IMG/VR virus record: IMGVR_UViG_3300032103_000073
Source of the DNA: a virus
Taxonomy: Duplodnaviria; Heunggongvirae; Uroviricota; Caudoviricetes
DNA: 64,000 nucleotides
Strand: one strand, 5' to 3'
Shown: positions 4,720 to 61,468 of the stretch, one piece after another
Layout of the letters: every line of letters begins with the position of its first letter
Position numbering within the stretch: the stretch's first letter is position 1
Notes under the pieces: model-generated
Database searches by the model: none
The model's input: only the letters and a program-made list of their open reading frames with translations
What the model was told of the DNA's origin: nothing
Translations under genes and position numbers: made by a program

Positions 4720-4748
4720 TTGGCACAAATTGGGCTCCATGTTATAAT
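4720..4748 (+). promoter_or_regulatory. conserved early promoter (TTGGCA-N17-TATAAT)
   Basis: member of the repeated promoter family. Confidence 0.7.
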
Positions 4749-4754
4749 ACATAC

Positions 4755-5069
4755 ATGATGAAGCGCAAAACACGTTCCGACCGCAAGCATGCAATCTACG
4801 TTATTACTAACGTAGTTACTAAAGACCAATACATTGGTGTTACAGTTTGCTCAGGCAACCTTCGCAAAGCACTAAAAGTTCGCATGCAAAAGCACATCCG
4901 CCGCGCACTTACAGAAAACAAAGACTGGGCACTGTGCCGCAACATCCGTGACTACGGTGTTGAAGCATTTGAGTATGGTGTTGTTGAAACTGTGCGCGGC
5001 AAAGCGGCAGCTCACGCACGTGAGCGCGAGCTTACTCGCGTACATGCTCCTGTTTTGAACACACTGTAA
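4755..5069 (+). CDS. small GIY-YIG-domain protein
   Basis: IYVITN...YIGVT...R..E motif spacing. Confidence 0.5.
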   Translation: MMKRKTRSDRKHAIYVITNVVTKDQYIGVTVCSGNLRKALKVRMQKHIRRALTENKDWALCRNIRDYGVEAFEYGVVETVRGKAAAHARERELTRVHAPVLNTL

Positions 5070-5083
5070 AAGAAAGTATTACA

Positions 5084-5269
5084 ATGAGCTATTTGCGTTT
5101 TATTTGGTTTGTTGTTGAACGTGACGGCGTTCGTGAAGCTATTCGCTGGGCTGAAAACGCTAGCCCTATGCCCGGACGCCAAACCCTGCCTGAATACTGT
5201 GCAGATCAGGGTTATGCTATCATGTCAGGTCCTTACAAAACTCGCAAAAAGGCTCTTGAAAACTTATAA
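5084..5269 (+). CDS. hypothetical protein
   Basis: ORF. Confidence 0.35.
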   Translation: MSYLRFIWFVVERDGVREAIRWAENASPMPGRQTLPEYCADQGYAIMSGPYKTRKKALENL

Positions 5270-5271
5270 AT

Positions 5272-5300
5272 TGGCACAAATTGGTTTTGGCGCTATAATA
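5272..5300 (+). promoter_or_regulatory. conserved early promoter plus UTR cassette
   Basis: TTGGCA-N17-TATAAT followed by ACATACATAGCGTAACAAAACAGGAG and ATG 5332. Confidence 0.75.
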
Positions 5301-5331
5301 CATACATAGCGTAACAAAACAGGAGTTAAAG

Positions 5332-5544
5332 ATGTCGGCAAATCCAGGAGCTTTTATGACTTATGCAGGCTTGAAGAAGATGTTGGAGCAGATGACACCT
5401 GAGCAGTTGCAACAGAATGTAGTAGTCTATGCAGGAGACATCGACGAAACTATGCCTGTCTTTGGTACTTGTACAAATACTGAAGAAGAAATGGGCGAGG
5501 TGTTGGACACTGATCCCGAAGGTGCGTTCTTCCTGTTGGTTTAA
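5332..5544 (+). CDS. hypothetical protein
   Basis: ORF downstream of the UTR cassette. Confidence 0.5.
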   Translation: MSANPGAFMTYAGLKKMLEQMTPEQLQQNVVVYAGDIDETMPVFGTCTNTEEEMGEVLDTDPEGAFFLLV

Positions 5545-5639
5545 GGAGTAGAAAATGACCGCTATTACTAATCTCATTATCGTACTCATGCCGGTTATCA
5601 TCATGGGCCTATCAATCATTGTCAAGGATGGATTCTAAA

Positions 5640-5849
5640 ATGAACGAACGAATTTTATCACCACAACTACTCAAGTTAGTTCAAGATGCTGGCCCCGGGT
5701 ATTCGTTAGCCGATCCTAAATGGGTTAAAAAGTTCGCCGAGTTGATTGTCAGAGAATGTGCTATAATTGCTAATCGTGCTGAGAATACTGAAACCGAGAT
5801 ACGGTGTATGTATGATGTGATTACTGAACATTTCGGAGTTGAAGAATGA
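5640..5849 (+). CDS. FAELIVREC-family small protein
   Basis: KFAELIVRECA...EHFGVEE; paralogs at 5846, 33366, 60368 and 63139. Confidence 0.6.
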   Translation: MNERILSPQLLKLVQDAGPGYSLADPKWVKKFAELIVRECAIIANRAENTETEIRCMYDVITEHFGVEE

Positions 5850-6037
5850 ACGAACGAATTCAAGAACTCGCTGAACAGGCCAGCGACACTAGCGATTACG
5901 GACTTGAGTGTGTGACTGACAAATTTCTAGAACACTTTGCTGAGTTGATTGTTCGGGAGTGTGCTGATTTTGCGGCAAGTCAAGGATCCGGTTGGGAAGC
6001 AAGAAAATCAATTGAAAAACATTTCGGAGTTGAATGA
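5846..6037 (+). CDS. FAELIVREC-family small protein
   Basis: HFAELIVRECADF...KHFGVE; ATGA overlap with the upstream paralog. Confidence 0.6.
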   Translation: MNERIQELAEQASDTSDYGLECVTDKFLEHFAELIVRECADFAASQGSGWEARKSIEKHFGVE

Positions 6038-6206
6038 TGAAAACAATGTATGAAGTGATTATGATTGACGGGCACTGCCCGAGCGAAACCTGCTCCCTGG
6101 GCTTGTACTCGACTCGAGAGTCTGCTGAAATAACCATTGAGAAAGAGGCTCCTCAATATTCTGATCATATGATTTTTGAAATCGAAGAAAAGTATGTTGG
6201 CGAGTG
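6036..6206 (+). CDS. hypothetical small protein (56 aa)
   Basis: ATGA-coupled ORF not present in the track. Confidence 0.35.
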
Positions 6207-6219: not shown

Positions 6220-6248
6220 TTGACACAAATTGATGTCTGCGTTATAAT
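6220..6248 (+). promoter_or_regulatory. conserved early promoter plus UTR cassette
   Basis: TTGACA-N17-TATAAT and GATACATAGCGTAAACAAACAGGAGTTAAAG before ATG 6281. Confidence 0.75.
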
Positions 6249-6280
6249 TGATACATAGCGTAAACAAACAGGAGTTAAAG

Positions 6281-8259: not shown

Positions 8260-8477
8260 TGACTTATCAGATTTTCCATCGAATTAAAATCCCATGCGGC
8301 GCCATTGCATCTTATGATGAAGGCTCGGGCTATGGGTATCGTTGCGAAGATTGCATGGCTGTTGTAGGTAGTATAGGGCAACCGCGCGAGTGTAAAGATA
8401 AAGCACTGGAATACAAGCTAATAGAAAAGCTAGGCGGACCCGGCTGGAATTATGCAGAACACGTTGTCAAAGACTAA
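8259..8477 (+). CDS. hypothetical Cys-rich protein
   Basis: ORF. Confidence 0.45.
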   Translation: MTYQIFHRIKIPCGAIASYDEGSGYGYRCEDCMAVVGSIGQPRECKDKALEYKLIEKLGGPGWNYAEHVVKD

Positions 8478-8498
8478 TACTCAAGTATTACCGTTTAA

Positions 8499-8527
8499 TT
8501 GACACAAATTGGCTCCTGCGCTATAAT
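8499..8527 (+). promoter_or_regulatory. conserved early promoter plus UTR cassette
   Basis: TTGACA-N17-TATAAT and the UTR before ATG 8560. Confidence 0.75.
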
Positions 8528-8559
8528 TGATACATAGCGTAAACAAACAGGAGCAATAA

Positions 8560-9181: not shown

Positions 9182-9931
9182 ATGAGTCAAATTCTAGTTT
9201 GGAAATGTGATCAAACGGGTAAACTGTTTGAGGATAAAAACAAGTACAAGGGTCACCTAAGTAAGCTGGCTCGCGAACGTAATACCAAGCGTAAGCTCAT
9301 GGTCGCAGAAGCTGTTGCTGATCAAAAGTGGAATGAACTCTACGAGTGCGAACAAACCATTGAGCAGTGGCGCGACATGGTTATTGCCAATCAAAACATG
9401 TTCTGGGCAGAAGCCGCAAAGACAGATCCGCATGACTGGAAGTGTGTTGGTAAATTGTCTGGTCGCAAGAATGGTGTTGTTTGCCCTGTCCCTGAACTGC
9501 TAGAGTTTACCACTTTTGATGTTCGCTGGAACCCTCGAGTTAGCAATAGCCACAGTTGTCCACACAATGGTGTGACTAACTGGTCTCCAAGTTGGAACGA
9601 AGACAAAACTGCACCTACTAGCTACCCTGGTTGGAGTGGCCGTGTTGAATGGATTGTTAAGTGGCCTAAAGAATGGGATGGCTGGTATCTGGGCAGTGAT
9701 CTGTTCCGCGACGGCTACAACACTCGCACTCGTGCTTACACCGGCACAGGTGGCGGTGGAGGTATGCGTTATAGCGAAAAGCATGGTTGCCATGTTCAGA
9801 GCTTTGGCTATGACTTCCGCATGTTTGCCGCAGACTGGCCGGGTATGGCTCGCGTTGTTGCTCGGGACCAGCTTGCAGAAGTCCTTAAAGGAAATCGGAC
9901 CAGCATTGATTATGCTCCGGAGCCGGCATGA
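9182..9931 (+). CDS. hypothetical Trp-rich protein (249 aa)
   Basis: ORF. Confidence 0.5.
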   Translation: MSQILVWKCDQTGKLFEDKNKYKGHLSKLARERNTKRKLMVAEAVADQKWNELYECEQTIEQWRDMVIANQNMFWAEAAKTDPHDWKCVGKLSGRKNGVVCPVPELLEFTTFDVRWNPRVSNSHSCPHNGVTNWSPSWNEDKTAPTSYPGWSGRVEWIVKWPKEWDGWYLGSDLFRDGYNTRTRAYTGTGGGGGMRYSEKHGCHVQSFGYDFRMFAADWPGMARVVARDQLAEVLKGNRTSIDYAPEPA

Positions 9932-10158: not shown

Positions 10159-10520
10159 ACGACACACTACTGCTCATCTTGCTATTGTTTACAAAACATT
10201 TTATTGTAGACTTTCCCTTGCAACATCGCTACCAATGGAGCAATAAAGGCACATACGGACACCCAGGCGGCATCTTGCACTCTTTTTTGCATGGCCTGGG
10301 CACTTATTTTTGTGTTGTTTGGTTCGCTCCTGCGGCAGCGCCATATTTGGCTGCTATTGACTATTTTGCACACTACCACATTGACTGGGCCAAAATGAAT
10401 ATCAACAAGCGATTGGGCTGGACGCCTGCTACACATGAACAGTTTTGGTGGTTGTTGGGCTTGGACCAATTTCTCCATGTATTGACATATATTGGCCTAG
10501 TTGCTATAATTACACCATGA
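10155..10520 (+). CDS. hypothetical membrane protein
   Basis: hydrophobic segments, His-rich. Confidence 0.4.
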   Translation: MNDTLLLILLLFTKHFIVDFPLQHRYQWSNKGTYGHPGGILHSFLHGLGTYFCVVWFAPAAAPYLAAIDYFAHYHIDWAKMNINKRLGWTPATHEQFWWLLGLDQFLHVLTYIGLVAIITP

Positions 10521-14895: not shown

Positions 14896-15272
14896 AGTTT
14901 TATCAGGCACCTTGGATAACAGAAAAAACACAAAGACAAATGGCACGTTGGGAAATACACAAACGATTTGGTATAAAGCAAGCCTTATGGTGGCAGTTTA
15001 TGCCCGGCACTATCATAGAAGTAAAATGGCCTAGAGGTTGGGCTGTGCTGGATGAAGACCCAGACGGCGGCCAGACTGCCGTGGAATCCTCAGACCCAAA
15101 CGACCATTATAGACCTTGGCTGGAACAGAATGTCGGCAAGCAGGGCTGGGATTGGGATTGGCGTGTTGGGCAAGTCACATTATATGATGATCACCAAAGT
15201 GATACTTTGCTAATTAAAATTAGACACAAATATCGAAATACTGCTATAATAGCTAAACTAAAATGGTCATAG
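14892..15272 (+). CDS. MF-x-LRWS-motif family small protein
   Basis: C-terminus ..AIIAKLKWS. Confidence 0.55.
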   Translation: MKFYQAPWITEKTQRQMARWEIHKRFGIKQALWWQFMPGTIIEVKWPRGWAVLDEDPDGGQTAVESSDPNDHYRPWLEQNVGKQGWDWDWRVGQVTLYDDHQSDTLLIKIRHKYRNTAIIAKLKWS

Positions 15273-18783: not shown

Positions 18784-19301
18784 TGCAATATTATAAAGCA
18801 GTAGAATTTGATAATTTAGAAATTATACAGAAAAAGGTATTTGATCTTTTTCCGAAAGATGACTTTGAAAAGAATAAGTTATTTTATATAGATGATAATT
18901 TAAACAGTTTTCTTTCTATTCCCGAGTTAAAGGATAACTTAATTAGATTAGGATTATTAGACCATGTTATGGGTTTTGGCTTTTATGTGACAACAAAGCC
19001 CAATCCAATTCATACAGATAATACTGCTTATGATTATAGTTTGAATATTCCTATAGTTGGCTGCGAAAATACGTTTGTGGAGTTTTATGAATCTACTAGC
19101 GAGCCGATTAAGCTGCAATTATATACTGGTGTAATTTATTATCATTATAAACAACAATCCTGCACACTAAAAGATAAACTTGAACTAACAAGTCCGCATA
19201 TTATAAAAGTAAATGTGCCGCATGCAGTTATAAACAATAACAGTTCGCAACGAATCACCCTGTTGATCAGACTGAAAAAAACAGTCGGCGAAATATTTTG
19301 A
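18783..19301 (+). CDS. Fe(II)/2OG dioxygenase-like paralog
   Basis: IHTDN...YSLNIPIVGCENTFVEF...VPHAVIN (HxD...H); paralog of the 53041(-) ORF. Confidence 0.45.
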   Translation: MQYYKAVEFDNLEIIQKKVFDLFPKDDFEKNKLFYIDDNLNSFLSIPELKDNLIRLGLLDHVMGFGFYVTTKPNPIHTDNTAYDYSLNIPIVGCENTFVEFYESTSEPIKLQLYTGVIYYHYKQQSCTLKDKLELTSPHIIKVNVPHAVINNNSSQRITLLIRLKKTVGEIF

Positions 19302-19327
19302 CACAAATTGACGTCTACGTTATAATA
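19299..19327 (+). promoter_or_regulatory. conserved early promoter plus UTR cassette
   Basis: TTGACA-N17-TATAAT and the UTR before ATG 19359. Confidence 0.75.
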
Positions 19328-19358
19328 GATACATAGCGTAAACAAACAGGAGCAGACG

Positions 19359-19539: not shown

Positions 19540-19737
19540 ATGGGTTATCGTGTTATGAATTCTGTTGACAATATGCGTGAGCGTTTTGGGGCACGGGCAG
19601 GACTCGAAGGTCCTTTTAACTACGATGGTCGCGTTCTTTACTACGATCCAAAAGAAGGTCAGTACTACGATCCTACTACAGACTTCTACATCGAAAACGA
19701 TGAGCTGGCTGTAATTATGAAGATGTCCGATGTCTAA
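19540..19737 (+). CDS. hypothetical protein
   Basis: ORF. Confidence 0.4.
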   Translation: MGYRVMNSVDNMRERFGARAGLEGPFNYDGRVLYYDPKEGQYYDPTTDFYIENDELAVIMKMSDV

Positions 19738-20146: not shown

Positions 20147-20175
20147 TTGGCACAAATTGGTTTTGGTGCTATAAT
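20147..20175 (+). promoter_or_regulatory. conserved early promoter plus UTR cassette
   Basis: TTGGCA-N17-TATAAT and the UTR before ATG 20208. Confidence 0.75.
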
Positions 20176-20207
20176 TGATACATAGCGTAAACAAACAGGA
20201 GTTAAAG

Positions 20208-20905: not shown

Positions 20906-21115
20906 ATGAAACAAGCATTAACAAAAGAACAAATCATTGCTTTATTTTGCAAGGATATGGAACAGCCAATTATCCAAATGGCATTGTATCGATCTTTTAA
21001 AAGATATGCCGAATTGAGAGACAAATTAGCATCGGACTACGAGTCTATTACAAAAATTCCTGCCAATGAATTTACAAGTGCCTATGCATTGTATTCCTTT
21101 AATAAGGTTAATTGA
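20906..21115 (+). CDS. hypothetical protein
   Basis: ORF. Confidence 0.4.
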   Translation: MKQALTKEQIIALFCKDMEQPIIQMALYRSFKRYAELRDKLASDYESITKIPANEFTSAYALYSFNKVN

Positions 21116-21140
21116 CACAAATTGGTTTTGGTAATATAAT
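21112..21140 (+). promoter_or_regulatory. conserved early promoter
   Basis: TTGACA-N17-TATAAT and a UTR variant before ATG 21171. Confidence 0.7.
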
Positions 21141-21170
21141 ACTTGTATCGTAAACAAAACGGAGCAGAAA

Positions 21171-21446
21171 ATGGCTACTATTCAAGAAATCAATTCCTTG
21201 ATTATGTTTGGTGATTTTAATAACGAACAGTTGACGTCGATTATTGATGCAATCAAATTTCGTCGCGCACAGATGACCCGGGATGCTAAACGTTCGTTTA
21301 CAGTTGGTAGTGATGTTAAGTTTTTTAGTACCAAACGCGGTATCACAGTGTCGGGTCGAGTGACAAAGGTAGCTATTAAATATATTACTGTTAGCACCGC
21401 ACAGGGCCTGTGGCGAGTTCCTGCTAACATGCTCGAAGCCGCTTAA
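21171..21446 (+). CDS. hypothetical protein
   Basis: ORF. Confidence 0.5.
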   Translation: MATIQEINSLIMFGDFNNEQLTSIIDAIKFRRAQMTRDAKRSFTVGSDVKFFSTKRGITVSGRVTKVAIKYITVSTAQGLWRVPANMLEAA

Positions 21447-21475
21447 TTGACACGAATTGGTTTTGGCGTTATAAT
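21447..21475 (+). promoter_or_regulatory. conserved early promoter plus UTR cassette
   Basis: TTGACA-N17-TATAAT and the UTR before ATG 21508. Confidence 0.75.
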
Positions 21476-21507
21476 TGATACATAGCGTAAACAAACAGGA
21501 GTTAGAA

Positions 21508-22011: not shown

Positions 22012-23046
22012 ATGAAGGCATCTAAATTTATTTCTGCTGTTGTAGTTGCATCCGCATTGGTTGCCGCAGTAGCTGAAGCTGGTAGTATCGGACGAAGCGG
22101 CAGCGGGTCTAGTTCAAGCTCAAGCTCAAGCCGTTCTAGTTCTAGTGTAAGCAAACCGTCTTACTCTGCTCCATCAAAGCAGGCAGTGGCTCCTGCTCCG
22201 AGCCATCCTGGCGGTATCGGTGGCACAACATCTAGCGTAGGTGTTCGTAAAAGCGAAGTGACTAACGGCGTCCGAAACGATGTAGCTGTTAGCAAAGGTG
22301 CAACTACTGGCACCTCAGGCACACATTCTACGCCTAGCACTAGTCCGCAGTATGCACCTGCACCGCAATACGGTTATCAACAGCCGCCAGCGCCTACAGT
22401 AGGCGGTGGATGGGCTGCTCCGTTCCTAGGCGCTATGGGCGGCACACTAGTAGGTAATGCACTGTTTGGCAATCACGGACACAGTGGCGGTACTACAGTA
22501 ATCAATAACGGCACTCCTGGAAGTTCGTCCGGTGGTGTTGTGGCAAGTGGTCCTGGTGCAGTTGCCGGTGATGCACAATTTAACCCGGGCGGCGTAGCTG
22601 CTCAACCTAAAAAGGAGTATACCGTGTGGAGTTTTATCGCTGATGTATTTGGTTTCGTAATTGTAGTTGCCCTGCTTCTTGGTGTTGCTTGGCTGTTCTA
22701 CAAAGGCTTTCAACTGGTTCGCAATTTTATCAACAAGGAGCGCGGCGTGAGTTCACAACCTTTTAACCCTACCCAACAATTTTGGCGTATTCAACGAGCA
22801 TTTGCAGAAGCAGATGTGACTGAACTTAAGGTACTGCTGGGTCCGGATGTTGTATATGAACTGACTAATGGCTTGACTCCTAGCACCATTACATTGTCTA
22901 ATGTAAGTCACGAAGTGCGGCTTGCTAACAACACTGAGTTCAGTATTTGGTACAAGTTCGAAGACAACGAATCTGAGATCAACCAAGTGTGGCATTTCGA
23001 GAAGTTCGGCAAAGATTGGAAGCTGAACGGTATCGAAAACGTGTAA
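22012..23046 (+). CDS. secreted/membrane protein with Ser/Gly-rich low-complexity region and a C-terminal globular domain
   Basis: signal peptide, poly-S tract, one TM helix (FVIVVALLLGVAWLF). Confidence 0.6.
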   Translation: MKASKFISAVVVASALVAAVAEAGSIGRSGSGSSSSSSSSRSSSSVSKPSYSAPSKQAVAPAPSHPGGIGGTTSSVGVRKSEVTNGVRNDVAVSKGATTGTSGTHSTPSTSPQYAPAPQYGYQQPPAPTVGGGWAAPFLGAMGGTLVGNALFGNHGHSGGTTVINNGTPGSSSGGVVASGPGAVAGDAQFNPGGVAAQPKKEYTVWSFIADVFGFVIVVALLLGVAWLFYKGFQLVRNFINKERGVSSQPFNPTQQFWRIQRAFAEADVTELKVLLGPDVVYELTNGLTPSTITLSNVSHEVRLANNTEFSIWYKFEDNESEINQVWHFEKFGKDWKLNGIENV

Positions 23047-23062
23047 TACACTAGTATTAAAA

Positions 23063-23086
23063 CCCGCCCAGGCGGGTTTTTTGTTT
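23063..23086 (+). terminator. rho-independent terminator
   Basis: cccgcccaggcggg stem followed by a T6 run. Confidence 0.8.
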
Positions 23087-23088: not shown

Positions 23089-23117
23089 TTGACACAAATT
23101 GGTGCTTGCGTTATAAT
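23089..23117 (+). promoter_or_regulatory. conserved early promoter plus UTR cassette
   Basis: TTGACA-N17-TATAAT and the UTR before ATG 23149. Confidence 0.75.
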
Positions 23118-23148
23118 ACATACATAGCGTAAACAAACAGGAGTTGAT

Positions 23149-23475: not shown

Positions 23476-23504
23476 TTGACACAAAATCCAATCTGCGTTA
23501 TAAT
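23476..23504 (+). promoter_or_regulatory. conserved early promoter plus UTR cassette
   Basis: TTGACA-N17-TATAAT and the UTR before ATG 23537. Confidence 0.75.
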
Positions 23505-23536
23505 ACATACATAGCGTAAACAAACAGGAGTTAGAG

Positions 23537-26575: not shown

Positions 26576-26605
26576 TTGACAGCCCACTTGAATCTTTGTT
26601 ATAAT
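26576..26605 (+). promoter_or_regulatory. sigma70-like promoter (TTGACA-N18-TATAAT)
   Basis: consensus hexamers. Confidence 0.55.
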
Positions 26606-26639
26606 AGGCTGTTGTTTTTAACTTTTAAGGTAAATTAAA

Positions 26640-27501: not shown

Positions 27502-27510
27502 AATAGTAAA

Positions 27511-29488: not shown

Positions 29489-29509
29489 CTTTGGCAGTAT
29501 ACTGCTAAT

Positions 29510-30567: not shown

Positions 30568-30596
30568 TTGACACAAAATCCTCGTTATGCTATAAT
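30568..30596 (+). promoter_or_regulatory. conserved early promoter
   Basis: TTGACA-N17-TATAAT. Confidence 0.7.
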
Positions 30597-37617: not shown

Positions 37618-37630
37618 ATACTGCTATAAT
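37601..37630 (+). promoter_or_regulatory. conserved promoter driving the tRNA pair
   Basis: TTGACA-N18-TATAAT overlapping the tilS stop. Confidence 0.65.
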
Positions 37631-37810: not shown

Positions 37811-37850
37811 ACAAAAACAAAAACCCGCATAATGCGGGTTTTTGTTTTAT
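37811..37850. terminator. bidirectional rho-independent terminator
   Basis: A-run, cccgcataatgcggg stem, T-run. Confidence 0.8.
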
Positions 37851-38725: not shown

Positions 38726-38779
38726 ATGTTTATTTAATCAATAGAGCCTGTAAGCTAGAAAAGTCTAATAAATATTTGC

Positions 38780-39568
38780 ATGTCATATTCTAAAATCATA
38801 ACAAACAAACTAGCTTCTAATACAGAATTTTTACCTTACATTCAATTGGCAGCAACTGCACTGGTTGCAGCATTTGTTATATTTTATCCCCAGTCTCATG
38901 CAGGATGGCTAACAGCAGTTCTTATGTATGCGGCGATTGGCTGTTTTGGCATTAGCATTGGTTATCATAGACTACTAACGCATAAGAGTTTTAAGACTAC
39001 AAAATTTTGGGAATATTTTTGTGCCTTGTGGGGAACATTGGCATTTACTGGCAGTGCGATAGGTTGGGTAGGCATGCACAGAGACCATCACAAATACAGC
39101 GACAAGCCGGGTGACCCGCATAGTCCAGTAGTTCGCAGCTGGCGCATGCTAGTAGCAGCTTACGATTATGCCCCGGATAAATGGAAGATTCGCCATTTAA
39201 TCTTTGATAAATTTCACGTCTTTATTCACACTTGGTATTTTGGTTTATTGTTAGCATGGACAGCTTTTTGGTTTTCACTTGGTGGAATAGCATTAGCTAT
39301 GTATGTGGTTATTATCCCTGCGGTAATTAGCGTTTGGGTTAGCACTACTAGCAACTATATGAACCACAAATGGGGATATAGGAATTTTGAAACAACAGAT
39401 AACAGCCGCAACCTTTGGTTTAATGCAGTCTTTACATTTGGAGAAGGATGGCATAACAACCATCACGCTCGCCCGGGTAATTATGACTTTGGATCTGGTA
39501 CTAGTGGCAAGTGGTGGGAATTTGATCCCGGTGCTAGAATTATAGAATTGATACGATCTTGCAAATAA
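38780..39568 (+). CDS. membrane fatty-acid desaturase/hydroxylase family protein
   Basis: three His boxes HRLLTH, HRDHH and HNNHH; four TM helices. Confidence 0.7.
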   Translation: MSYSKIITNKLASNTEFLPYIQLAATALVAAFVIFYPQSHAGWLTAVLMYAAIGCFGISIGYHRLLTHKSFKTTKFWEYFCALWGTLAFTGSAIGWVGMHRDHHKYSDKPGDPHSPVVRSWRMLVAAYDYAPDKWKIRHLIFDKFHVFIHTWYFGLLLAWTAFWFSLGGIALAMYVVIIPAVISVWVSTTSNYMNHKWGYRNFETTDNSRNLWFNAVFTFGEGWHNNHHARPGNYDFGSGTSGKWWEFDPGARIIELIRSCK

Positions 39569-40077
39569 TTATAAGTTGCACTTGAATCTAGTAAAATTTG
39601 CAAAAAAGAAAAATCGCTGTCGCTATTATTTACAAACATCCCTTTTAATGAGCGGTCTATAATAAAAGGTAGTGGCTGAAGATTATGTTTCTCTGCTTTA
39701 CTTTTATCGTTATTGGCACTAAAATAATTAACGTCAATAGTTCCCGGCGTTAGTGGGATATATAACTCAACTGAAGTTTTGACATCATTGACATACAAAT
39801 CGATAAATCCTTTGCGCTTTTTCGGGTGCATATTATAAAGCATTATTCTTGAAATATTTAAATTGCAATTACTTATGAAATTAAAAATCTCGTAAGTGTG
39901 TAATCGATCATATTGGATGAATTTATTTTTAATATTTTTTGAATGGGACCCCCAGTCGAATTGACAAGAAGATCGGTCTTTTATGACCTCTATATCCGAT
40001 TGCAGCAATTGATAAAAATCAACCGAAGCTTTATGGTCTTGAAAAAAAGTTATTGACATTATTCTAAAAAATAACAA
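39481..40077 (-). CDS. hypothetical protein
   Basis: minus-strand ORF in the island. Confidence 0.4.
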   Translation of the reverse strand: MLFFRIMSITFFQDHKASVDFYQLLQSDIEVIKDRSSCQFDWGSHSKNIKNKFIQYDRLHTYEIFNFISNCNLNISRIMLYNMHPKKRKGFIDLYVNDVKTSVELYIPLTPGTIDVNYFSANNDKSKAEKHNLQPLPFIIDRSLKGMFVNNSDSDFSFLQILLDSSATYNYLQDRINSIILAPGSNSHHLPLVPDPKS

Positions 40078-41240
40078 TGGCTAGTAGATCGAACTAGGCC
40101 GTATTTTATACCCTTCATGCTTGTCCATTCGGGTCCTGCAATTTGTTGCAATTTTTTAATCCCGTTTGTATATATTCTCCTCTGCTCGCTATGTTCGTCT
40201 TTTAAAAACCAAGCGTCACGAGGACTCCACATTAACAAAAAATCATCTTTACCGCTACTATAAGTGTCAGTATTCCAATCTGGATATACAATACGATGTA
40301 ATCCGTTGTTTGTTAGATAAATGAATGTATTGTTATATTTGGCTTTTCCTAACACATTATATTCCGGCGTTAGCCAACCAGCCTTGACATCGTATTCTGG
40401 CACATTTTTTAAATAGTTCATGACTAAATGGCCCTGCTTACATAGTATGTCACATGCATCTGGACTCCAGTAAAAAAACTCATCATTTTCCCAACTTCTG
40501 TTTAGTTCCTGAGTTAAAGGGTTAACGGCATTATCTACAATGTCTATGAAGTTAATTGCATATTTGTTGTTTATTAAATTAACACGCGGTTTATCAATAC
40601 CCCAAACAAAGCAAACAGATTTTCCTTTCGAGTACAAGTCTAAATAATCTTTTTCTTGTTCCCTGATATATCGTCTTGCTTGTTGATTTGGACTAAAAAC
40701 AGCATTTGATTTATACAAGAAATCAAATTTATTGTTATCTTTTGAAAACAAGTCTTTTTGATAGTCTAAATGATCTACTAACCGGAATTTGGTCAATGGG
40801 CTATGTTCTAGCAATTGTTTTGCTACCGGCATTGCAACTCTACTAACTTCACTATTTAAATAAGTGTCCCAACTTCCATCACCGCCGAAATTATGAAAGG
40901 TTGCAATTTCATCTACAAACAGACCTTGATCAACAAATGCTCGTAGCATTGTATAACTGTCTGCTCCACCGGACCACCAAAGCACTATGTAATCATAACG
41001 TTCTCTAATTTGCCTTGCTCGTTTTTGATAAAGAGTTCTTAAGTCCTCGGTTGGTTCGATTTTCCAATTATATGATGCAAATTCATAGTCATTGAAATTC
41101 CAATGTATCTTGTCTACATTATTTTTTTTAGCTGCTTCTATAGCAGATACTTTGCTATAGAATTTCAAATCATTGACTTGATAAAAGCCAAATTTATCTT
41201 TAGACAAATAAGGCTTTGAAATAAGCGAATCGTAGGTCAT
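40059..41240 (-). CDS. PP-loop (SGGxDS) ATP-pyrophosphatase-like protein
   Basis: IVLWWSGGADSYTML motif; 393 aa. Confidence 0.5.
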   Translation of the reverse strand: MTYDSLISKPYLSKDKFGFYQVNDLKFYSKVSAIEAAKKNNVDKIHWNFNDYEFASYNWKIEPTEDLRTLYQKRARQIRERYDYIVLWWSGGADSYTMLRAFVDQGLFVDEIATFHNFGGDGSWDTYLNSEVSRVAMPVAKQLLEHSPLTKFRLVDHLDYQKDLFSKDNNKFDFLYKSNAVFSPNQQARRYIREQEKDYLDLYSKGKSVCFVWGIDKPRVNLINNKYAINFIDIVDNAVNPLTQELNRSWENDEFFYWSPDACDILCKQGHLVMNYLKNVPEYDVKAGWLTPEYNVLGKAKYNNTFIYLTNNGLHRIVYPDWNTDTYSSGKDDFLLMWSPRDAWFLKDEHSEQRRIYTNGIKKLQQIAGPEWTSMKGIKYGLVRSTSHCYFLE

Positions 41241-41269
41241 AAGTAAGTGTATAATTAACTTTATTTATT

Positions 41270-42196
41270 ATGAACAAAACATTTTTAACACTACTGGGAT
41301 CTCTAATGATTTCCACTTCTCTTTTTGCAAAAGAAAAGATTTCGATTTATTTTCCATATGCAGCCAGCGCAAGTCCGACACCTAGCGTCATACGTATGGT
41401 AGATGAAGCAAATAACTTGCAAGAAAAATATAATTTCCAACTGGTATTTAAACCAGGTGGCAATCAGGGTATTGCAGTGAATTCGATGGATCGAGAACCT
41501 AACAACTCGTTGTCTGTTATTGCGCCTGCTTATGTAGAAAATTACAAAACTAACATGTTTGACAAAAACAATCACGTACCGATATGGTCGATGGGTAATG
41601 CTTGTTGGTTGGTTATTTCTAATTTAGGAGACGAAAAAACAGGATTATCAAGTTTAAAACACGAAAAAGAAATAAATGTCGGCGGGGTCGGCTTTGGTAA
41701 TGCTACACACCTGACTGCACTTGCGTTGGGAGAGAAATATAACATAAAAATAAATTATATTGTTTTCAAATCAAACACAGATGCTCTGATGAATATGGTC
41801 GGAAAAAACGGTATTAACATGGTTATAGATAAAGCAGATAACTATATTAATTTTAAAGAAAAAGGTAATCTTCGTGCATTAGCAGTGAGCTGCAATAAAA
41901 AAATAGGGAAATTGAATTTCGTTAAAACATTAGAAGAACAAAAAATAACAGCGCCTTCAGTTTTTAATATTATTATTGCAAACAAAAATATGCCGATAGA
42001 CTTGCAGCAAGACATCAAGTCTATTTTACAAAAAAGTGCAGAAAACATTGGACAAGATTTTTTCTTAGAACATAGTGGTTTTAGACCTAGTCAATTTGAT
42101 AAAATATCAGAAGACATGTTTTACAACAAATCGTTGCTTTTGTTAGAAGAATTGCTTGCAAAGCATAAATATGCTATAGAACTAAGTAAAAAATAA
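41270..42196 (+). CDS. secreted periplasmic solute-binding-like protein
   Basis: signal peptide plus about 290-aa mature domain. Confidence 0.35.
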   Translation: MNKTFLTLLGSLMISTSLFAKEKISIYFPYAASASPTPSVIRMVDEANNLQEKYNFQLVFKPGGNQGIAVNSMDREPNNSLSVIAPAYVENYKTNMFDKNNHVPIWSMGNACWLVISNLGDEKTGLSSLKHEKEINVGGVGFGNATHLTALALGEKYNIKINYIVFKSNTDALMNMVGKNGINMVIDKADNYINFKEKGNLRALAVSCNKKIGKLNFVKTLEEQKITAPSVFNIIIANKNMPIDLQQDIKSILQKSAENIGQDFFLEHSGFRPSQFDKISEDMFYNKSLLLLEELLAKHKYAIELSKK

Positions 42197-43938: not shown

Positions 43939-43967
43939 TTGACACAAAGGCTAAATAGAAGTACAAT
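43939..43967 (+). promoter_or_regulatory. promoter (TTGACA-N17-TACAAT)
   Basis: upstream of tRNA-Thr. Confidence 0.6.
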
Positions 43968-44086: not shown

Positions 44087-44115
44087 TTGACACAAGAGAT
44101 AAATAAACTTATAAT
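44087..44115 (+). promoter_or_regulatory. promoter (TTGACA-N17-TATAAT)
   Basis: consensus hexamers. Confidence 0.6.
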
Positions 44116-44164
44116 AGAAGCTTACGTTAACAAAGTTAGCGTAGAAATTTTTAGGAATAACCAA

Positions 44165-44761: not shown

Positions 44762-44839
44762 GTACGGGTGGCAGAGAGGCCCAATGCAACGGTCTGCAAA
44801 ATCGTAAAACCGTCGGTTCAAATCCGACCCCGTACTCCA
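44762..44839 (+). tRNA. tRNA-Cys (GCA)
   Basis: cloverleaf; loop CTGCAAA. Confidence 0.65.
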
Positions 44840-44845
44840 AATTTA

Positions 44846-45225: not shown

Positions 45226-45855
45226 ATGAACTATATAATTTACAAGACTACAAATCTGCTAAACGGTATGTACTACATTGGTTCTCATCAAACCAATGAC
45301 TTAAATGACGGATACTTAGGTTCGGGTAAACATTTAAAAAGAGCCATTACTAAGTACGGCAGAGAAAATTTTAAATTTGAAATTCTTTACTTTCTTCCCT
45401 CAAAAGAGGAAATGTTTAAAGTAGAACGAGAAATCGTAAATGAATCTTTTGTGCAAGATCCGCTAACGTATAATTTAAAAATCGGTGGTAGCGGAGGGAA
45501 TCCTGGTATTATCGGAGCTTTTTCTGGAAGAAGGCATACCGAAGAAACTAGAGAAAAAATGAGAGTTTCGAGGTCGAAACAAGCGCCCATGTCAGAAACA
45601 AGTAGACAAAAACTTTCAGAAAATAACTGGTCTAAAAGAGATCCCGGCGCGCATAGAGAACACATGCGTAAGATAGCATCTATGCCACGGTCGGAAGAAC
45701 ATAACAAAAAAGTCGCCGAAGCAAACATAGGCAAAACAATAGTTAATAATGGTATTATTGCTAAAAGAATAGATAAGAAAGATTTGAGCTACTATGAAGA
45801 TAGTGTTGGAAAAGAGGCGCAATGCCTCGTAAGAAATAATATGCCCTTAAGATAA
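45226..45855 (+). CDS. GIY-YIG homing endonuclease (Seg-like)
   Basis: IIYKTTNLLNGMYYIGSH...KRAITKYG GIY-YIG module plus basic C-terminal DNA-binding region. Confidence 0.75.
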   Translation: MNYIIYKTTNLLNGMYYIGSHQTNDLNDGYLGSGKHLKRAITKYGRENFKFEILYFLPSKEEMFKVEREIVNESFVQDPLTYNLKIGGSGGNPGIIGAFSGRRHTEETREKMRVSRSKQAPMSETSRQKLSENNWSKRDPGAHREHMRKIASMPRSEEHNKKVAEANIGKTIVNNGIIAKRIDKKDLSYYEDSVGKEAQCLVRNNMPLR

Positions 45856-48105: not shown

Positions 48106-48134
48106 TTGACACAAAATAGAGAACATGCTACAAT
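48106..48134 (+). promoter_or_regulatory. promoter (TTGACA-N17-TACAAT)
   Basis: drives leader A and the tRNA-like at 48347. Confidence 0.6.
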
Positions 48135-48139
48135 AGATA

Positions 48140-48346
48140 CAAGTTAAGAAATTAACTGTTTTGATAGATGTTGTTGGGAGCGATCCCCCACAACAGAGAT
48201 GTAAGGTCCTCAACTGCGAGGCGTTAGCAACATTTATCATCTTGTTCTTTAAAAATTTGCAGTGTTGTTTAGGCTGATTGACGGCAATCGAAAAGCAGTC
48301 TGAGTCTTGTCCCCGGCGCACCGCTTTGCCGAGCGTACCGCAGGGA
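48140..48346 (+). other. structured leader A (candidate small RNA), homologous to leader B
   Basis: shared 5' box AGAT(A/G)(C/T)AAGTTAAG(A/C)AATTAACT and a GGGA(A)GCGATC hairpin. Confidence 0.4.
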
Positions 48347-48420
48347 GTCTCTATAGTGTAAGGGTAGCACGCCAGCTTGTAAGAGTTGGAGGATTGGGTT
48401 CGAATCCCAATAGAGTTTAA
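48347..48420 (+). tRNA. tRNA-Gln-scaffold paralog with an 8-nt anticodon loop (TTGTAAGA); no CCA
   Basis: D-arm and T-arm nearly identical to the tRNA-Gln at 45012; stem CCAGC/GTTGG encloses 8 nt. Confidence 0.4.
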
Positions 48421-48453: not shown

Positions 48454-48482
48454 TAGACACAAATTCTTGTGTTTGCTATAAT
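48454..48482 (+). promoter_or_regulatory. promoter (TAGACA-N17-TATAAT)
   Basis: drives leader B and tRNA-Glu. Confidence 0.5.
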
Positions 48483-48489
48483 AGATGTA

Positions 48490-48641
48490 AGTTAAGCAAT
48501 TAACTTACTTGCTCTTTAAAAAGTTCATCCAACATATAAGTCGCTGGGAAGCGATCATTATATGCAAACACATTAGATCAGCTACCGGCGAAGGGAGTAA
48601 CCGGCGATTGTTAAAGTGAGTGTGTTTACATATAATGTTTT
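48490..48641 (+). other. structured leader B (candidate small RNA)
   Basis: homologous to leader A. Confidence 0.4.
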
Positions 48642-51531: not shown

Positions 51532-51560
51532 AAGGTACCAGTTGACACAAAATAGCAGAT
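51532..51560 (+). promoter_or_regulatory. promoter (TTGACA-N17-TATAAT) plus SD and 7-codon mini-ORF (MKRSGKR)
   Basis: AACAGGAG then ATG 51585 and stop 51606. Confidence 0.55.
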
Positions 51561-51681
51561 GCTATATAATTTAATTTTAAACAGGAGTATGATATGAAAC
51601 GTTCAGGTAAACGATAGTGTCATCCTAGACCCCGTAATTGGTCTGGGTTGGCACGTAAAAGAAAATGTAATTTACGACTAA

Positions 51682-54271: not shown

Positions 54272-54300
54272 TTGACACAAAATCACAGAACAACTATAAT
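54272..54300 (+). promoter_or_regulatory. promoter (TTGACA-N17-TATAAT)
   Basis: upstream of the tRNA at 54304. Confidence 0.6.
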
Positions 54301-55280: not shown

Positions 55281-55952
55281 ATGAAACGTATCATCGAAAT
55301 CAGAGCCGCCGAGGGCGGAGAAGATAGTAAACTATTTGTTAAAGATTTGGCACAAGCATATATTAAGTTCGCACAAAGCAAGGGCTGAGCTACCCGCCTG
55401 ATAGGTGAGTATCAAGGCGAACTTCATATTGAAGTCCAGGGTACTGATTTATCCGGCTTGTATAACGAAAGCGGAGGACATCGCATACAGCGAATTCCGC
55501 CCACAGAACGAAAAGGCCGAGTGCATACCAGCACAGTCACAGTTGCCATCGTAGATCCCGCAGAAGTTGCTTTAGAATTAAAGGACTCTGATTTACGAAT
55601 AGAATGGTACAGTGGTACAGGCGCCGGCGGGCAGCACAGGAACAAGCACCAAAACTCGTGCCGCATTACACACATTCCTTCTGGCATAGTTGCAACAGCA
55701 CAATGTCGCTCAAGGGAAAACAGTTTAGCGGAAGCACGAAGCGCGATTGTTGCCCGTGTAAACGAACAAGTTAAAAAACAGTTTACAGATGGGCTAGCAC
55801 AAAATAGGCGTGAGCAAGTGGGCTCTGGCATGCGAGGAGACAAAATTCGCACTTACAGATTCCAAGACGACAGGGTGCAGGACCATGTAACAAGCAAAAC
55901 AGCCAGTACTAAAAAAGTATTACAAGGCAACTTTGACTTGCTGTGGGCTTAA
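55281..55952 (+). CDS. RF1-like peptide chain release factor (domains 2-4) interrupted by an in-frame TGA at 55386-55388
   Basis: strong SD; GGQ motif SGTGAGGQHRNK; PxT-type tripeptide (PPT); ESGGHRIQRIP; a single reading frame across the TGA. Confidence 0.65.
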
Positions 55953-55953: not shown

Positions 55954-55982
55954 TTGGCACAAATTGGCTTTGGTGCTATAAT
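55954..55982 (+). promoter_or_regulatory. conserved early promoter plus UTR cassette
   Basis: before ATG 56015. Confidence 0.75.
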
Positions 55983-56014
55983 ACATACATAGCAAAACAA
56001 AACAGGAGTTAGAG

Positions 56015-56885: not shown

Positions 56886-56914
56886 TTGGCACAAATTGGT
56901 TTTGGTGCTATAAT
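56886..56914 (+). promoter_or_regulatory. conserved early promoter
   Basis: before ATG 56946. Confidence 0.7.
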
Positions 56915-56945
56915 ACTTGTATAGTAAGAAGCAAAGGATAACACA

Positions 56946-58289: not shown

Positions 58290-58520
58290 TTGTTTAAGGT
58301 AATTTACAATAACGTCGAGCAAGAGTTCGACACATTAGATTTGGCAATGAGGCATGCAAAACTGCTCAATGCCTTTGTCACAATTAAAAGCGACACGTTT
58401 GAAATTGTAGGCAAGTTTGGAGTAGATAGTGTCCGAGACGGACGATGTCCCGACGGCGTTGTCTACGACTGGAATAAAGCAAGTCGTATCGGTCGTGTTA
58501 AGAAAGAACGGGTAGTATAA
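58290..58520 (+). CDS. hypothetical protein
   Basis: ORF. Confidence 0.4.
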   Translation: MFKVIYNNVEQEFDTLDLAMRHAKLLNAFVTIKSDTFEIVGKFGVDSVRDGRCPDGVVYDWNKASRIGRVKKERVV

Positions 58521-58536
58521 AGTACTACCTTTTTAT

Positions 58537-58565
58537 TTGACACTAATTGGTTTTGGACATATAAT
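58537..58565 (+). promoter_or_regulatory. conserved early promoter
   Basis: before ATG 58594. Confidence 0.7.
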
Positions 58566-58593
58566 AACTGTATTAAACAGAAAGGAGCACGAT

Positions 58594-59345: not shown

Positions 59346-59362
59346 ACAATTTCGGAGCATAC

Positions 59363-59770
59363 ATGGTGCTTTCTAAAAACAGCTTAAACAAACTAAAGTC
59401 CAGTATGATGTCATCGGATTCGAGTGCAGATTATGCTGGACCTGTTTATAACTATTTGGTCTACGGTTTCCATCCGGGTAGCTTTTTTCGAGCACTGTTA
59501 GCTAACGATTTTATGAGTGCAATTGCTCACAGTCATCCTGCTAACAGCGTATATGAGCTTAAAAAGCTAGTAGGATGGCTATGTCAAACTTTCCCACCCG
59601 ATGTTGTTTATGGTAATTATGAAGTAGTAGAAGGTTGGTGCAAGAAAACTGACGAAGAACGGTATCAAGTATTACTAGATGCTAAACTTGTATACGATAA
59701 AGAAACTGAAATGATGCTAATCCTACAGGGAAAACTGCAAGCAGATGTACGGGAAATCGAATTTGTTTAA
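59363..59770 (+). CDS. hypothetical protein
   Basis: ORF. Confidence 0.45.
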   Translation: MVLSKNSLNKLKSSMMSSDSSADYAGPVYNYLVYGFHPGSFFRALLANDFMSAIAHSHPANSVYELKKLVGWLCQTFPPDVVYGNYEVVEGWCKKTDEERYQVLLDAKLVYDKETEMMLILQGKLQADVREIEFV

Positions 59771-59799
59771 TTGACACAAATTCGGTTTGGCGTTATAAT
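59771..59799 (+). promoter_or_regulatory. conserved early promoter
   Basis: before ATG 59830. Confidence 0.7.
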
Positions 59800-59829
59800 A
59801 CTTGTATAGTAAGAAACAAGGAGTCAGTC

Positions 59830-60366
59830 ATGGAAGATTTTACCATGGATCAAAGCGGTATGGATATCGTGCGTAAGGCACAAGTCTATGCCATGGCTGC
59901 TCATGCGGCTGTTGGACAAAAGCGTAAGTACACCAACGAACCCTACATTGTTCACCCTGCAGAAGTTGCCAGCATCGTTGCCAGTGTTCCCGGTAGTACT
60001 CCTGACATGGTTGCGGCCGCGTGGCTTCATGACGTTATCGAGGATACTGGTTGCACATTTACTGATGTGCATATGGCTTTTGGTATCGACATTGCTACTC
60101 TCGTTGGCTGGTTGACTGATGTGAGCCGGCCCGAAGATGGCAATCGTGCCCACCGCAAGGCTATGGACCGTGAGCATACTGCACAAGCACCTGCTGAGGC
60201 ACAGACCATCAAGTTGGCTGACCTTATCAGCAACAGCCGTAGCATCATGCAACATGACCCGGAGTTTGCAAAGACTTACCTCGAAGAAAAGCGTCAGCTT
60301 CTTGCAGTTATGACCAAGGGTGACCGCAGTCTTCATGCAGAAGCTAGCAAGTTTGTTGGAGTTTGA
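59830..60366 (+). CDS. HD-domain phosphohydrolase
   Basis: H..H...HPAEV and WLHDVIEDT (H-HD-D metal ligands). Confidence 0.6.
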   Translation: MEDFTMDQSGMDIVRKAQVYAMAAHAAVGQKRKYTNEPYIVHPAEVASIVASVPGSTPDMVAAAWLHDVIEDTGCTFTDVHMAFGIDIATLVGWLTDVSRPEDGNRAHRKAMDREHTAQAPAEAQTIKLADLISNSRSIMQHDPEFAKTYLEEKRQLLAVMTKGDRSLHAEASKFVGV

Positions 60367-60367
60367 A

Positions 60368-60634
60368 ATGAACGAACAAATGCTGGAACTTTATAGACGG
60401 GCTCAAGTGCCGTATACTGCTATTGACCCGTCTAATAATATGCCTTATGAGACAACTACTTTTAGTGCGGAAAAGTTCGCCGAGTTGATTGTTCGGGAAT
60501 GTTTGAACCAATTACAAGAATTAACGCCACTGAAAATTTCCAATGAAGAACACCAGAAATTAGTTGATGCTACACATATAGCGGCAGTGAGTATCGGTGT
60601 TGCTAAGATTAAACATCATTTCGGAGTTGAATAA
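60368..60634 (+). CDS. FAELIVREC-family small protein
   Basis: KFAELIVRECLNQ...HHFGVE. Confidence 0.55.
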   Translation: MNEQMLELYRRAQVPYTAIDPSNNMPYETTTFSAEKFAELIVRECLNQLQELTPLKISNEEHQKLVDATHIAAVSIGVAKIKHHFGVE

Positions 60635-61179
60635 TGAAGTTAGTTTTAATTCGAGGATTGCCCGGTTCGGGTAAAAGCACAATGGCACAAACTTTGTGCT
60701 ATAGCCCAGACTGGGTACATCAAGAAGCAGATCAGTTTTGGATGCATAACGGAGAGTACCGTTTTGATGCCGCTCGGTTGCGCGAAGCTCACGAATGGTG
60801 TCAATCTAAGACTCGCGAAGCATTGGCCGCAGGCTGTGATGTTGTGGTCTCTAACACCTTTACTACCATCAAAGAACTGCGTCCTTACTTTGACATTGCA
60901 AAAGAATTTAACATTGTGCCCAATGTATTTGTAGCACAAAACGACTTTGGTAGTGTTCACAATGTTCCTGCTGAGACTTTGGCTAAGATGCGTGAGCGTT
61001 TTCAGTTCAATATTGACAGCCTGTTTGCAGAGTACCGGCCTGCAAAGGTTATCCCTATTGCTGTAGACGGGGAAGATGGATGGCACACTTGTCCCTACAA
61101 GATGGAAATCCACGACGACTTCGAGTCGCTGTGTCAATGTTCAGATGAACAAGAGCACGAATGTGCTATGGATGTTTAA
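60634..61179 (+). CDS. P-loop polynucleotide-kinase-like protein
   Basis: Walker A GLPGSGKST; PNK/zeta-toxin-type kinase fold size. Confidence 0.55.
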   Translation: MKLVLIRGLPGSGKSTMAQTLCYSPDWVHQEADQFWMHNGEYRFDAARLREAHEWCQSKTREALAAGCDVVVSNTFTTIKELRPYFDIAKEFNIVPNVFVAQNDFGSVHNVPAETLAKMRERFQFNIDSLFAEYRPAKVIPIAVDGEDGWHTCPYKMEIHDDFESLCQCSDEQEHECAMDV

Positions 61180-61180
61180 T

Positions 61181-61429
61181 ATGGGCTGGGTAGTTTATGC
61201 TAAAGGCGATGGAGAAATTCTTCGCTATTACAAGTCGGAGAAGGCAGCACAGAGCCAAGTCACAGGACACAATAAAAAACTGTTTCTGGACATCCTGCAT
61301 AACGGCCATAGTCGTTATGAAAGTCGCAAGGAGTGGGCATACTGCAACTGGCACGACTTTGAAGAAGTTTATAAAAAGTATTATGAACATAACAAGCACC
61401 ATATGCTGGTTATGAGCTCATTTCGCTAG
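61181..61429 (+). CDS. hypothetical protein
   Basis: probable ATG 61181 (track from 61076). Confidence 0.4.
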   Translation: MGWVVYAKGDGEILRYYKSEKAAQSQVTGHNKKLFLDILHNGHSRYESRKEWAYCNWHDFEEVYKKYYEHNKHHMLVMSSFR

Positions 61430-61439
61430 AGTCGAAAAA

Positions 61440-61468
61440 TAGACATAAATCGGTTTGAGTGTTATAAT
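61440..61468 (+). promoter_or_regulatory. promoter (TAGACA-N17-TATAAT)
   Basis: before ATG 61497. Confidence 0.55.

Follow-up and report, generated by a model that had tools for sequence, protein, structure and literature searches.

The promoter early stem-loop elements (PeSLs) of the T4-type phages RB49/phi1 and KVP40/nt-1 are short composite modules that lie between genes and recur many times where the early genes are small and variable. In them an early promoter, a stem-loop, a Shine-Dalgarno (SD) sequence and an ATG follow one another, and they mediate gene shuffling through mini-circles (PMC2839356, PMC4122927). Early promoters of T5 such as PN25, which carry a "downstream sequence region", are very strong promoters for the host polymerase (PMC12464699), and Cluster K mycobacteriophages carry start-associated sequences (SAS), short conserved repeats that contain a ribosome-binding site and stand directly before many starts in one genome (PMC3203893). 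Here we analyse a 64,000-nucleotide stretch (the window) of the uncultured Caudoviricetes virus IMGVR_UViG_3300032103_000073, in which a near-consensus promoter, often joined to a near-identical 5' untranslated region (UTR), recurs ahead of genes on one strand. The strategy is one known in phages and stands close to the T4-type PeSLs and the T5 early promoters; here it is unusually uniform and precedes about 30 genes and tRNA clusters. We consider it probable that the phage uses the repeats as a standard cassette to express those of its genes that unmodified host RNA polymerase transcribes.

A site was called a near-consensus promoter when at least 11 of the 12 hexamer positions matched the sigma-70 -35 and -10 elements. 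By this definition the window holds 32 promoters on the + strand versus 1 on the - strand. Eighteen of the 32 are perfect 12/12 matches to TTGACA-N17/18-TATAAT, a class that is confined to the + strand and for which we estimate a chance expectation of about 0.1; the other 14 carry a single mismatch. The core TTGRCACAAATTGG, with up to 2 mismatches allowed, is likewise restricted to the + strand, where it has 18 copies (dinucleotide shuffles, 1.8; maximum 6), and a wider scan allowing one mismatch per hexamer returned 41 + strand and 6 - strand sites (shuffles, about 12). Every promoter site is co-oriented with + strand open reading frames (ORFs) or tRNAs downstream. The repeat is real, and statistically overwhelming. 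A preliminary description of this DNA had listed 23 sites and put the number of copies at about 25. Each of the 23 coordinates, when read, holds a -35, a 17-nt spacer and a -10, after three small shifts (5272 to 5271, 19299 to 19298 and 51532 to 51542); the count, by contrast, was too low, since nine good sites had been overlooked (2676, 10482, 15221, 26576, 27476, 29475, 31448, 48454 and 63077). At 61440 and 48454 the -35 hexamer is TAGACA. The consensus hexamers, the total strand bias, the fixed distance to start codons and an architecture kept at hundreds of loci in related phages together indicate that the sites are very probably real, strong promoters of the host sigma-70 type ahead of genes, as that description had proposed. 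Its view of them as a promoter-plus-5'UTR cassette for small early genes stands in part: such cassettes do precede small protein genes, but tRNA clusters (37601, 43939, 54272) and a class of leaderless genes stand behind the same core, so the claim needs correction. That the genes are expressed early is suggested by the host-type promoters, the gene content and analogy with other phages.

An alignment of 13 leader-bearing cassettes shows conservation from about -40 (about 5 nt before the -35) to the ATG, with sharp edges on both sides. Variable columns lie between the invariant ones, at spacer positions 9-13, at the first two bases past the -10 and in the linker from SD to ATG. Immediately 5' of the -35 is a short A/T block (TTAA or TAAA), which often contains the stop codon of the preceding gene; it is followed by TTGACA or TTGGCA, a 17-nt spacer opening with CAAATTGG, TATAAT and an A/T-rich discriminator. 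In many copies the preceding stop abuts the -35 (TAA) or sits within it (TGA), so that the cassette is then the entire intergenic region, and a convincing terminator stands before only two cassettes (23059-23080 and 58510-58530). The commonest leader (type 1) is the 24-mer ATACATAGCGTAAACAAACAGGAG, found in seven exact copies plus one with 2 mismatches, and never in shuffles. It had been described in about 12 cases; we confirm the leader itself and count about 10 copies, including variants at 55954 and 21112. A second leader (type 2) is indeed present at 56886 and 59771, and in the alignment the leader at 58537 is related to it. Type-1, type-2 and related leaders have a predicted UTR of 22-26 nt, and their cassettes end at the start codons. 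One and the same promoter sequence precedes two different leaders at 20147 and 56886, and cassettes are therefore mosaic.

This arrangement resembles the PeSLs in its A/T-rich upstream part, its sigma-70 -35 and -10 elements, its SD and the start codon at its 3' end, and both kinds of module occupy regions of highly plastic gene content. The cassettes differ from PeSLs in lacking the defining stem-loop or terminator (folds of -41 to +1 gave a mean z of 0.03 versus shuffles), in their nearly perfect consensus hexamers and in having a leaderless subclass; moreover, the phage is not shown to be T4-like and cassette-mediated exchange is not demonstrable here. In T5, the transcribed region contributes to promoter strength. 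The first ~20 transcribed bases of PN25 are AT-rich, begin with AUA and lead straight into an SD, with the ATG some 26 nt downstream, as is predicted here. T5 promoters, however, depart from the consensus in their -35 boxes and lack the near-identity among copies that is seen here, and DNA and small-protein searches found no homology with T5. SAS are not known to be joined to a promoter and belong to a temperate actinobacteriophage, whereas the conserved stretch here is the complete predicted 5'UTR of the primary transcript.

The position of the transcription start is suggested by a group of promoters that lie unusually close to their genes. At five window sites the ATG is the 6th or 7th nucleotide past the -10 (ATG 4755, 10517, 27511, 29510 and 34982). 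Among 346 promoters from loci retrieved by protein homology, 46 have an ATG at exactly the 7th nucleotide, while the 4th-6th and 8th-10th positions hold 0-7; 28 of the 46 open ORFs of at least 50 aa. The spacing TATAAT-N5-6-ATG is retained by orthologues of the gene at 4755-5069 in almost all lineages, over amino-acid identities of 82% to as low as 37%, and apparent leaderless genes also occur in the relatives' loci L172-L280. This conserved arrangement and the sharp ATG peak place the predicted +1 at the 7th nucleotide past the -10, which in the leader class would be the A of CATAG. Genes whose ATG coincides with the predicted start would apparently give leaderless mRNAs, and gene starts can be corrected accordingly, several genes opening at a leaderless ATG within or just past the preceding gene. 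In the leader class the transcript would read AUAGCGUAAACAAACAGGAG, 5-7 nt, AUG, and the "long conserved leader" thus becomes the whole 26-nt 5'UTR. The type-1 leader is unstructured (minimum free energy, -0.1 kcal/mol), and an Rfam search of the window returned tRNAs only; with neither a stable structure nor an Rfam match, it does not have the features of a structured cis-regulatory RNA such as a riboswitch, a thermometer or a protein-binding hairpin.

Judged by sequence comparison, the phage is a member of a large uncultured clade of jumbo phages that lacks relatives among isolates: DNA and small-protein searches of 50,697 isolate phage records found no close relative, and only ClpX, ClpP and tRNA pieces matched. 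The 344-aa protein of the window was matched exactly by only two Logan contigs, both of 1.6 kb. In IMG/VR, the leader pattern matched 74 stretches and the promoter pattern 108, and the cassette-driven small gene 21171-21446 occurs in 161 relatives on contigs of up to 355 kb. As an unbiased set we used 109 loci retrieved by protein homology, which contain 377 unique near-consensus promoters (494 occurrences on the gene strand versus 14 on the other). An SD leader follows 73% of these promoters; the UTR has a median length of 24 nt (10th-90th percentile, 19-28), and the leader a composition of 51% A, 21% C, 7% G and 21% T, against a background of 30% A and 24% G. The clade architecture is therefore a consensus promoter, a CATA or CTTA start, an A-rich, G-poor, unstructured leader of about 24 nt, GGAG, 5-7 nt and ATG. 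The leader sequence itself is not kept. The window-type pattern occurs in only one of the 377 promoters; orthologues of gene 21171 have lineage-specific leaders (e.g., CATAGTAAGCAACAAAGGAG, CTTACACACTAAGGAG and TATTGTAACGCAAAAAGGAG); and the closest relatives share the spacer caaattggttttgg and have mixed leaders. Spacer motifs also go by lineage, with CAAATTGG here and TGGTAAAACC or AAAATnnnnATTTT in others. Spacer identity is 0.45 within a locus versus 0.32 between loci, and leader identity 0.51 versus 0.44, values reached in 0 of 300 permutations. Since only the architecture is conserved and the closest relatives have assorted leaders, the identical copies point to within-genome homogenisation together with generic selection.

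Taken as the phage's standard equipment for the host polymerase, the cassette would come in three forms. In the first, an unstructured, A-rich, G-poor leader of 24-26 nt leads through GGAG and 5-7 nt to the ATG and would provide strong, unregulated translation initiation; in the second, the leader is absent and the first transcribed triplet would be the ATG; in the third, the promoter stands ahead of a tRNA cluster. Most cassettes fill the whole gap between two genes with no terminator upstream, and the scarcity of terminators implies nested transcripts in which each gene receives its own boost. Near-consensus hexamers, 17-bp spacing, an upstream A/T block and an A/T-rich discriminator make for very strong promoters with stable open complexes, for which escape is the limiting step. 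The leader of the first form makes up the first 20 bases to be transcribed and would probably ease escape from a promoter that binds polymerase very tightly. In the escape-limited T5 promoter N25, the first 20 transcribed bases alter productive output up to 25-fold, the native AT-rich sequence being favourable (PMC12464699), and transcribed sequence is now counted as part of the promoter (PMC5961368). Because the leader covers exactly +1 to +20 and the linker, it may plausibly serve both easy escape and ribosome loading on an open SD. Two processes would then account for the seven identical leaders: selection of a general kind, which favours leaders that are short, open and G-poor and have a strong SD, and concerted evolution, in which cassettes of one genome are copied or converted into each other. 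The leader copies do not in themselves demonstrate a specific binding site.

Several points weigh against reading the repeats as a standard expression cassette. Promoter activity, transcription start and timing are all inferred from sequence; the conserved GCG within the A-rich leader and the CAAATTGG spacer motif are superfluous for a generic strong promoter and leader; and the initiation regions of cassette genes are not significantly more accessible than those of other window genes with a good SD (p = 0.11). In addition, IMG/VR relatives show a 21-nt pattern of the leader in 59 distinct contexts, some with quite different promoter spacers, which could reflect sequence-specific selection rather than drift plus conversion; this set is biased because it was selected by the leader pattern itself. 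The same recurrence, together with the seven identical and several near-identical copies within one genome, would suit a leader that is the target of a phage post-transcriptional regulator, a RegB-like nuclease acting at GGAG or a RegA-like repressor, that shuts the early set off. T4 RegB cleaves GGAG in early leaders, and the preliminary description had likewise suggested a site for a translational regulator or an RNase. That suggestion has lost ground: the conserved stretch is a whole unstructured 26-nt 5'UTR, and the closest relatives that share the spacer use a heterogeneous range of leaders, the clade keeping only length and composition. The window has no reverse-complement (antisense) copy of the leader, and no RegA, RegB or other RNA-binding regulator is among the Pfam matches listed for 143, 72 and 49 window proteins (the best 25 of 50 families in the first list), which cover only 64 kb of the genome. 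We regard such a target as very unlikely. Somewhat easier to entertain, and still improbable, is that the spacer motif is an operator through which a phage DNA-binding protein shuts off or boosts all promoters together. Base-specific contacts of the polymerase are few in this part of the spacer, the motif differs from lineage to lineage and spacer identity is higher within loci than between them, and in the TTGGCA copies AAATTGG is repeated with a 10-bp period. Concerted evolution alone would, however, suffice for lineage-specific spacers, some lineages (L199) have variable ones, and no candidate regulator was identified, the sole DNA-binding match being a weak HTH_23 (E = 0.0034).

Among the alternatives to a standard expression cassette, the one that we would rank first, although still as unlikely, is that the cassettes mainly serve as portable homology, moving small genes in and out in the manner of T4-type PeSLs, and that their uniformity is kept for that purpose. 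Some 86-90% of gene adjacencies in this hyperplastic region are lost in relatives, genes 9182-9931 and 19540-19737 are found in other neighbourhoods in the relatives' loci L030, L130 and L106, some replacement breakpoints fall at cassette edges (window 56017 and 6215), the cassettes are mosaic, and PeSL crossovers have been mapped between the -10 and the ATG (PMC2839356). Several other breakpoints are, however, plain gene boundaries, and the recombination hotspot that had been proposed finds no support: adjacency is broken at 86% of non-cassette versus 90% of cassette junctions (p = 0.14), in a saturated test that cannot tell a causal role from co-location. Exchange may well make use of the cassettes as homology; they can be explained without such a role. 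A further proposal starts from the IF3 gene at 1598-2137 (infC equivalog, 167 bits), which lies directly after ClpX (403-1641) and directly upstream of bS21 (2134-2370, 57 bits). Here the leader, and perhaps the leaderless starts, would be the cis partner of a phage-modified ribosome in which phage IF3 and bS21 replace the host proteins on the 30S platform. Besides the adjacent pair, the window encodes 32 tRNAs, a TilS domain and an RF1-like protein; the IF3-bS21 stretch (window 1-2370) aligns in close relatives, where bS21 itself is present; bacterial genomes totalling 596 Gb are practically devoid of the leader pattern; and huge-phage studies, which propose that S21 drives preferential initiation on phage mRNAs, have defined no cis element for this redirected initiation (PMC7162821, PMC9723584). 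The phages in those studies are comparable in their translation genes (IF3, bS21); the phage studied here has these two genes side by side, many tRNAs and a stereotyped mRNA 5' end. Close relatives with the same bS21, however, use many different leaders and the clade conserves only leader composition and length, and we find a cis partner of this kind improbable. The fuller version, in which the 26-nt AUAG-starting leader and the leaderless mRNAs are the cis half and IF3/bS21 the trans half of a phage-specific initiation system, strikes us as a long shot. If it were true, ribosomes carrying phage IF3 and bS21 would prefer phage messages, and the missing cis element of the huge-phage "ribosome hijack" would be supplied.

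Read as a standard expression cassette, the repeats define a host-polymerase regulon for a widespread uncultured jumbo-phage clade, with about 32 transcription units in 64 kb, and they give a simple rule by which relatives can be searched for such units, namely a consensus promoter with a start at CATA or CTTA, followed either by no leader or by a G-poor one of about 24 nt. They also supply natural strong promoter and leader parts, and the presence of phage IF3 and bS21 alongside defined leaders makes the idea of phage-biased initiation directly testable. They point to a host whose expression depends on sigma-70 and an SD, and so to one that is not of the Bacteroidota type. The interest of the cassettes is otherwise modest, save for the leaderless class, which is conserved, and for a possible connection with the phage's initiation proteins.

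Three other origins or functions were considered for the repeated sequences. A mobile element, such as a miniature inverted-repeat transposable element or an insertion-sequence-like unit, was rejected on the single orientation, the fixed distance to start codons and the lack of visible inverted termini. Borrowing of the leader from bacterial host genes was dismissed as well, as 185,579 genomes (596 Gb) gave 4 matches, 2 of them at chance level and 2 in mis-binned phage fragments. The third was a sigma-dependent pause, with TAGCGT (TAnnnT) at +2 to +7 as a -10-like element; it was rejected as a general feature because leaders of other lineages (CTTACACAC and CATAGTAAG) lack this element. The leader also shares CGUAACAA with the 1490s region of 16S rRNA, a similarity that we take to be at chance level.

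All individual sites described below lie on the + strand. Perfect promoters with the type-1 leader are found at 6220-6280 (ATG 6281), 8499-8559 (ATG 8560), 19298-19358 (ATG 19359; the TGA stop of the preceding gene falls within the -35 hexamer), 21447-21507 (ATG 21508), 23089-23148 (ATG 23149; a strong terminator lies upstream at 23059-23080) and 23476-23536 (ATG 23537; spacer caaaatcc), and a TTGGCA promoter is joined to this leader at 20147-20207 (ATG 20208). Variants of it follow the promoters at 5271-5331 (AACAAAAC, with 2 mismatches; ATG 5332), at 55954-56014 (TTGGCA, CATAGCAAAACAAAACAGGAG; ATG 56015) and, behind a perfect promoter, at 21112-21170 (GTATCGTAAACAAAACGGAG; ATG 21171). The type-2 leader is present as TATAGTAAGAAGCAAAGGA at 56886-56945, where the TTGGCA promoter is the one identical to that at 20147 (ATG 56946), and as TATAGTAAGAAACAAGGAG behind a perfect promoter at 59771-59829 (ATG 59830). 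Short leaders follow perfect promoters at 58537-58593 (TGTATTAAACAGAAAGGAG; ATG 58594), downstream of the terminator-like hairpin at 58510-58530, and, with a different sequence, at 30568-30626 (TTATAGTTAGATAACGGGGA; ATG 30627). Different leaders are also found at 26576-26639 (perfect promoter with an 18-nt spacer; ATG 26640) and at 61440-61496 (a weaker promoter, TAGACA-17-TATAAT; ATG 61497). Three sites fit none of these patterns: at 15221-15262, TAGACA-18-TATAAT is followed 12 nt past the -10 by ATG 15263 with no SD; the perfect promoter at 31448-31476 precedes ATG 31484, which opens only about 14 codons; and 63077-63105 carries TTGACA-17-TATACT.

The leaderless-type promoters are TTGGCA-17-TATAAT at 4720-4754 (ATG 4755, the 7th nucleotide past the -10), TTGACA-17-TAAAAT at 27476-27510 (ATG 27511, the start of a 283-aa phosphoesterase gene), TTGACA-17-TATACT at 29475-29509 (ATG 29510; the arrangement is kept in two relatives) and a perfect promoter at 34948-34981 (ATG 34982, the 6th nucleotide past the -10). 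At 10482-10516, a perfect promoter with a TG-extended -10 lies within the 3' end of the preceding gene and places ATG 10517 at the predicted +1; this start may be either leaderless or coupled through an ATGA overlap. A small hairpin, TAATAC-NNNN-GTATTA, overlies the TAA of the upstream gene just before the cassettes at three places (4694-4709, 8475-8490 and 23044-23059), where 0.13 copies would be expected. Related hairpins (GTAGTAC-loop-GTACTAC and GTAATACTTGAGTATTAC) are found upstream of cassettes in IMG/VR relatives and in the window at 58510-58530, and the stop-overlapping hairpin may be a weak terminator or a processing site. In two relatives (L093, 9459-9537; L110, 8661-8583), a homologue of the window's tRNA-Cys (44767-44845) occupies exactly the slot that corresponds to window 4718, bounded by the end of a gene (4696) and by the promoter at 4720, which implies that tRNA genes also move between cassette-flanked slots.

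Seven promoters lie in the tRNA region. A perfect promoter with an 18-nt spacer at 37601-37630 precedes tRNA-Met (37652) and tRNA-Arg, TTGACA-17-TACAAT at 43939-43967 precedes tRNA-Thr (43977), and a perfect promoter at 54272-54300 precedes tRNA-Leu (54314). Another perfect promoter, at 51542-51570, stands right after a tRNA-Leu and is followed by an SD, a 7-codon ORF and tRNA-Lys genes. Behind the perfect promoter at 44087-44164 come a hairpin (44122-44144) with a T run (region 44116-44155) and a small ORF (ATG 44165). The promoters at 48106-48134 (-10, TACAAT) and 48454-48482 (-35, TAGACA) are immediately followed by similar hairpins at 48135-48165 (AGTTAAGAAATTAACT) and 48483-48515 (AGTTAAGCAATTAACT). 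The hairpins behind these last three promoters may belong to short non-coding transcripts or attenuators. The 32 tRNA genes of the window lie between 37.6 and 54.4 kb, one of them with a 4-base anticodon call (48346-48419), and are interspersed with homing-endonuclease ORFs (GIY-YIG at 45226-45855 and HNH/NUMOD-type ORFs of about 200 aa).

One promoter, TTGACA-17-TATAAA at 2676-2780, has a UTR of a different kind. It is followed by a 70-nt structured 5'UTR and the ATG of an Hsp20 gene (2781-3218). This UTR is conserved in 10 relatives, with 6 compensatory pairs over the first hairpin and the others together, and its last hairpin, UUCUUGCUU-AUUA-AAGGAGAA, which has a bulged G, is predicted to sequester the SD. 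Such sequestration recalls the ROSE-type RNA thermometers of small heat-shock genes; no Rfam ROSE model matched this UTR, for which the best hit was freshwater-2 (E = 1.5).

The window as a whole is phage-like, with nearly all genes small and on the + strand, and it encodes a range of takeover functions: ClpX, ClpP, ClpS, Hsp20, MazG, an HD_4 hydrolase, an RNA ligase, a TilS domain, an RF1-like GGQ protein, IF3 and bS21. A low-GC island at 37847-42196 (0.34-0.36), with genes on both strands for a TauD-like dioxygenase, a fatty-acid desaturase and a TctC-family solute receptor, looks like acquired metabolic genes of host type. TctC (Bug) proteins are most expanded in Betaproteobacteria, and the receptor is a weak hint at a host from that class. 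The RF1-like product, a 164-aa protein encoded at 55458-55952, matches release factor 1 over its C-terminal half, with a score far below the full-length cut-offs; its GGQ motif is intact, and it may be a ribosome-rescue or termination factor.

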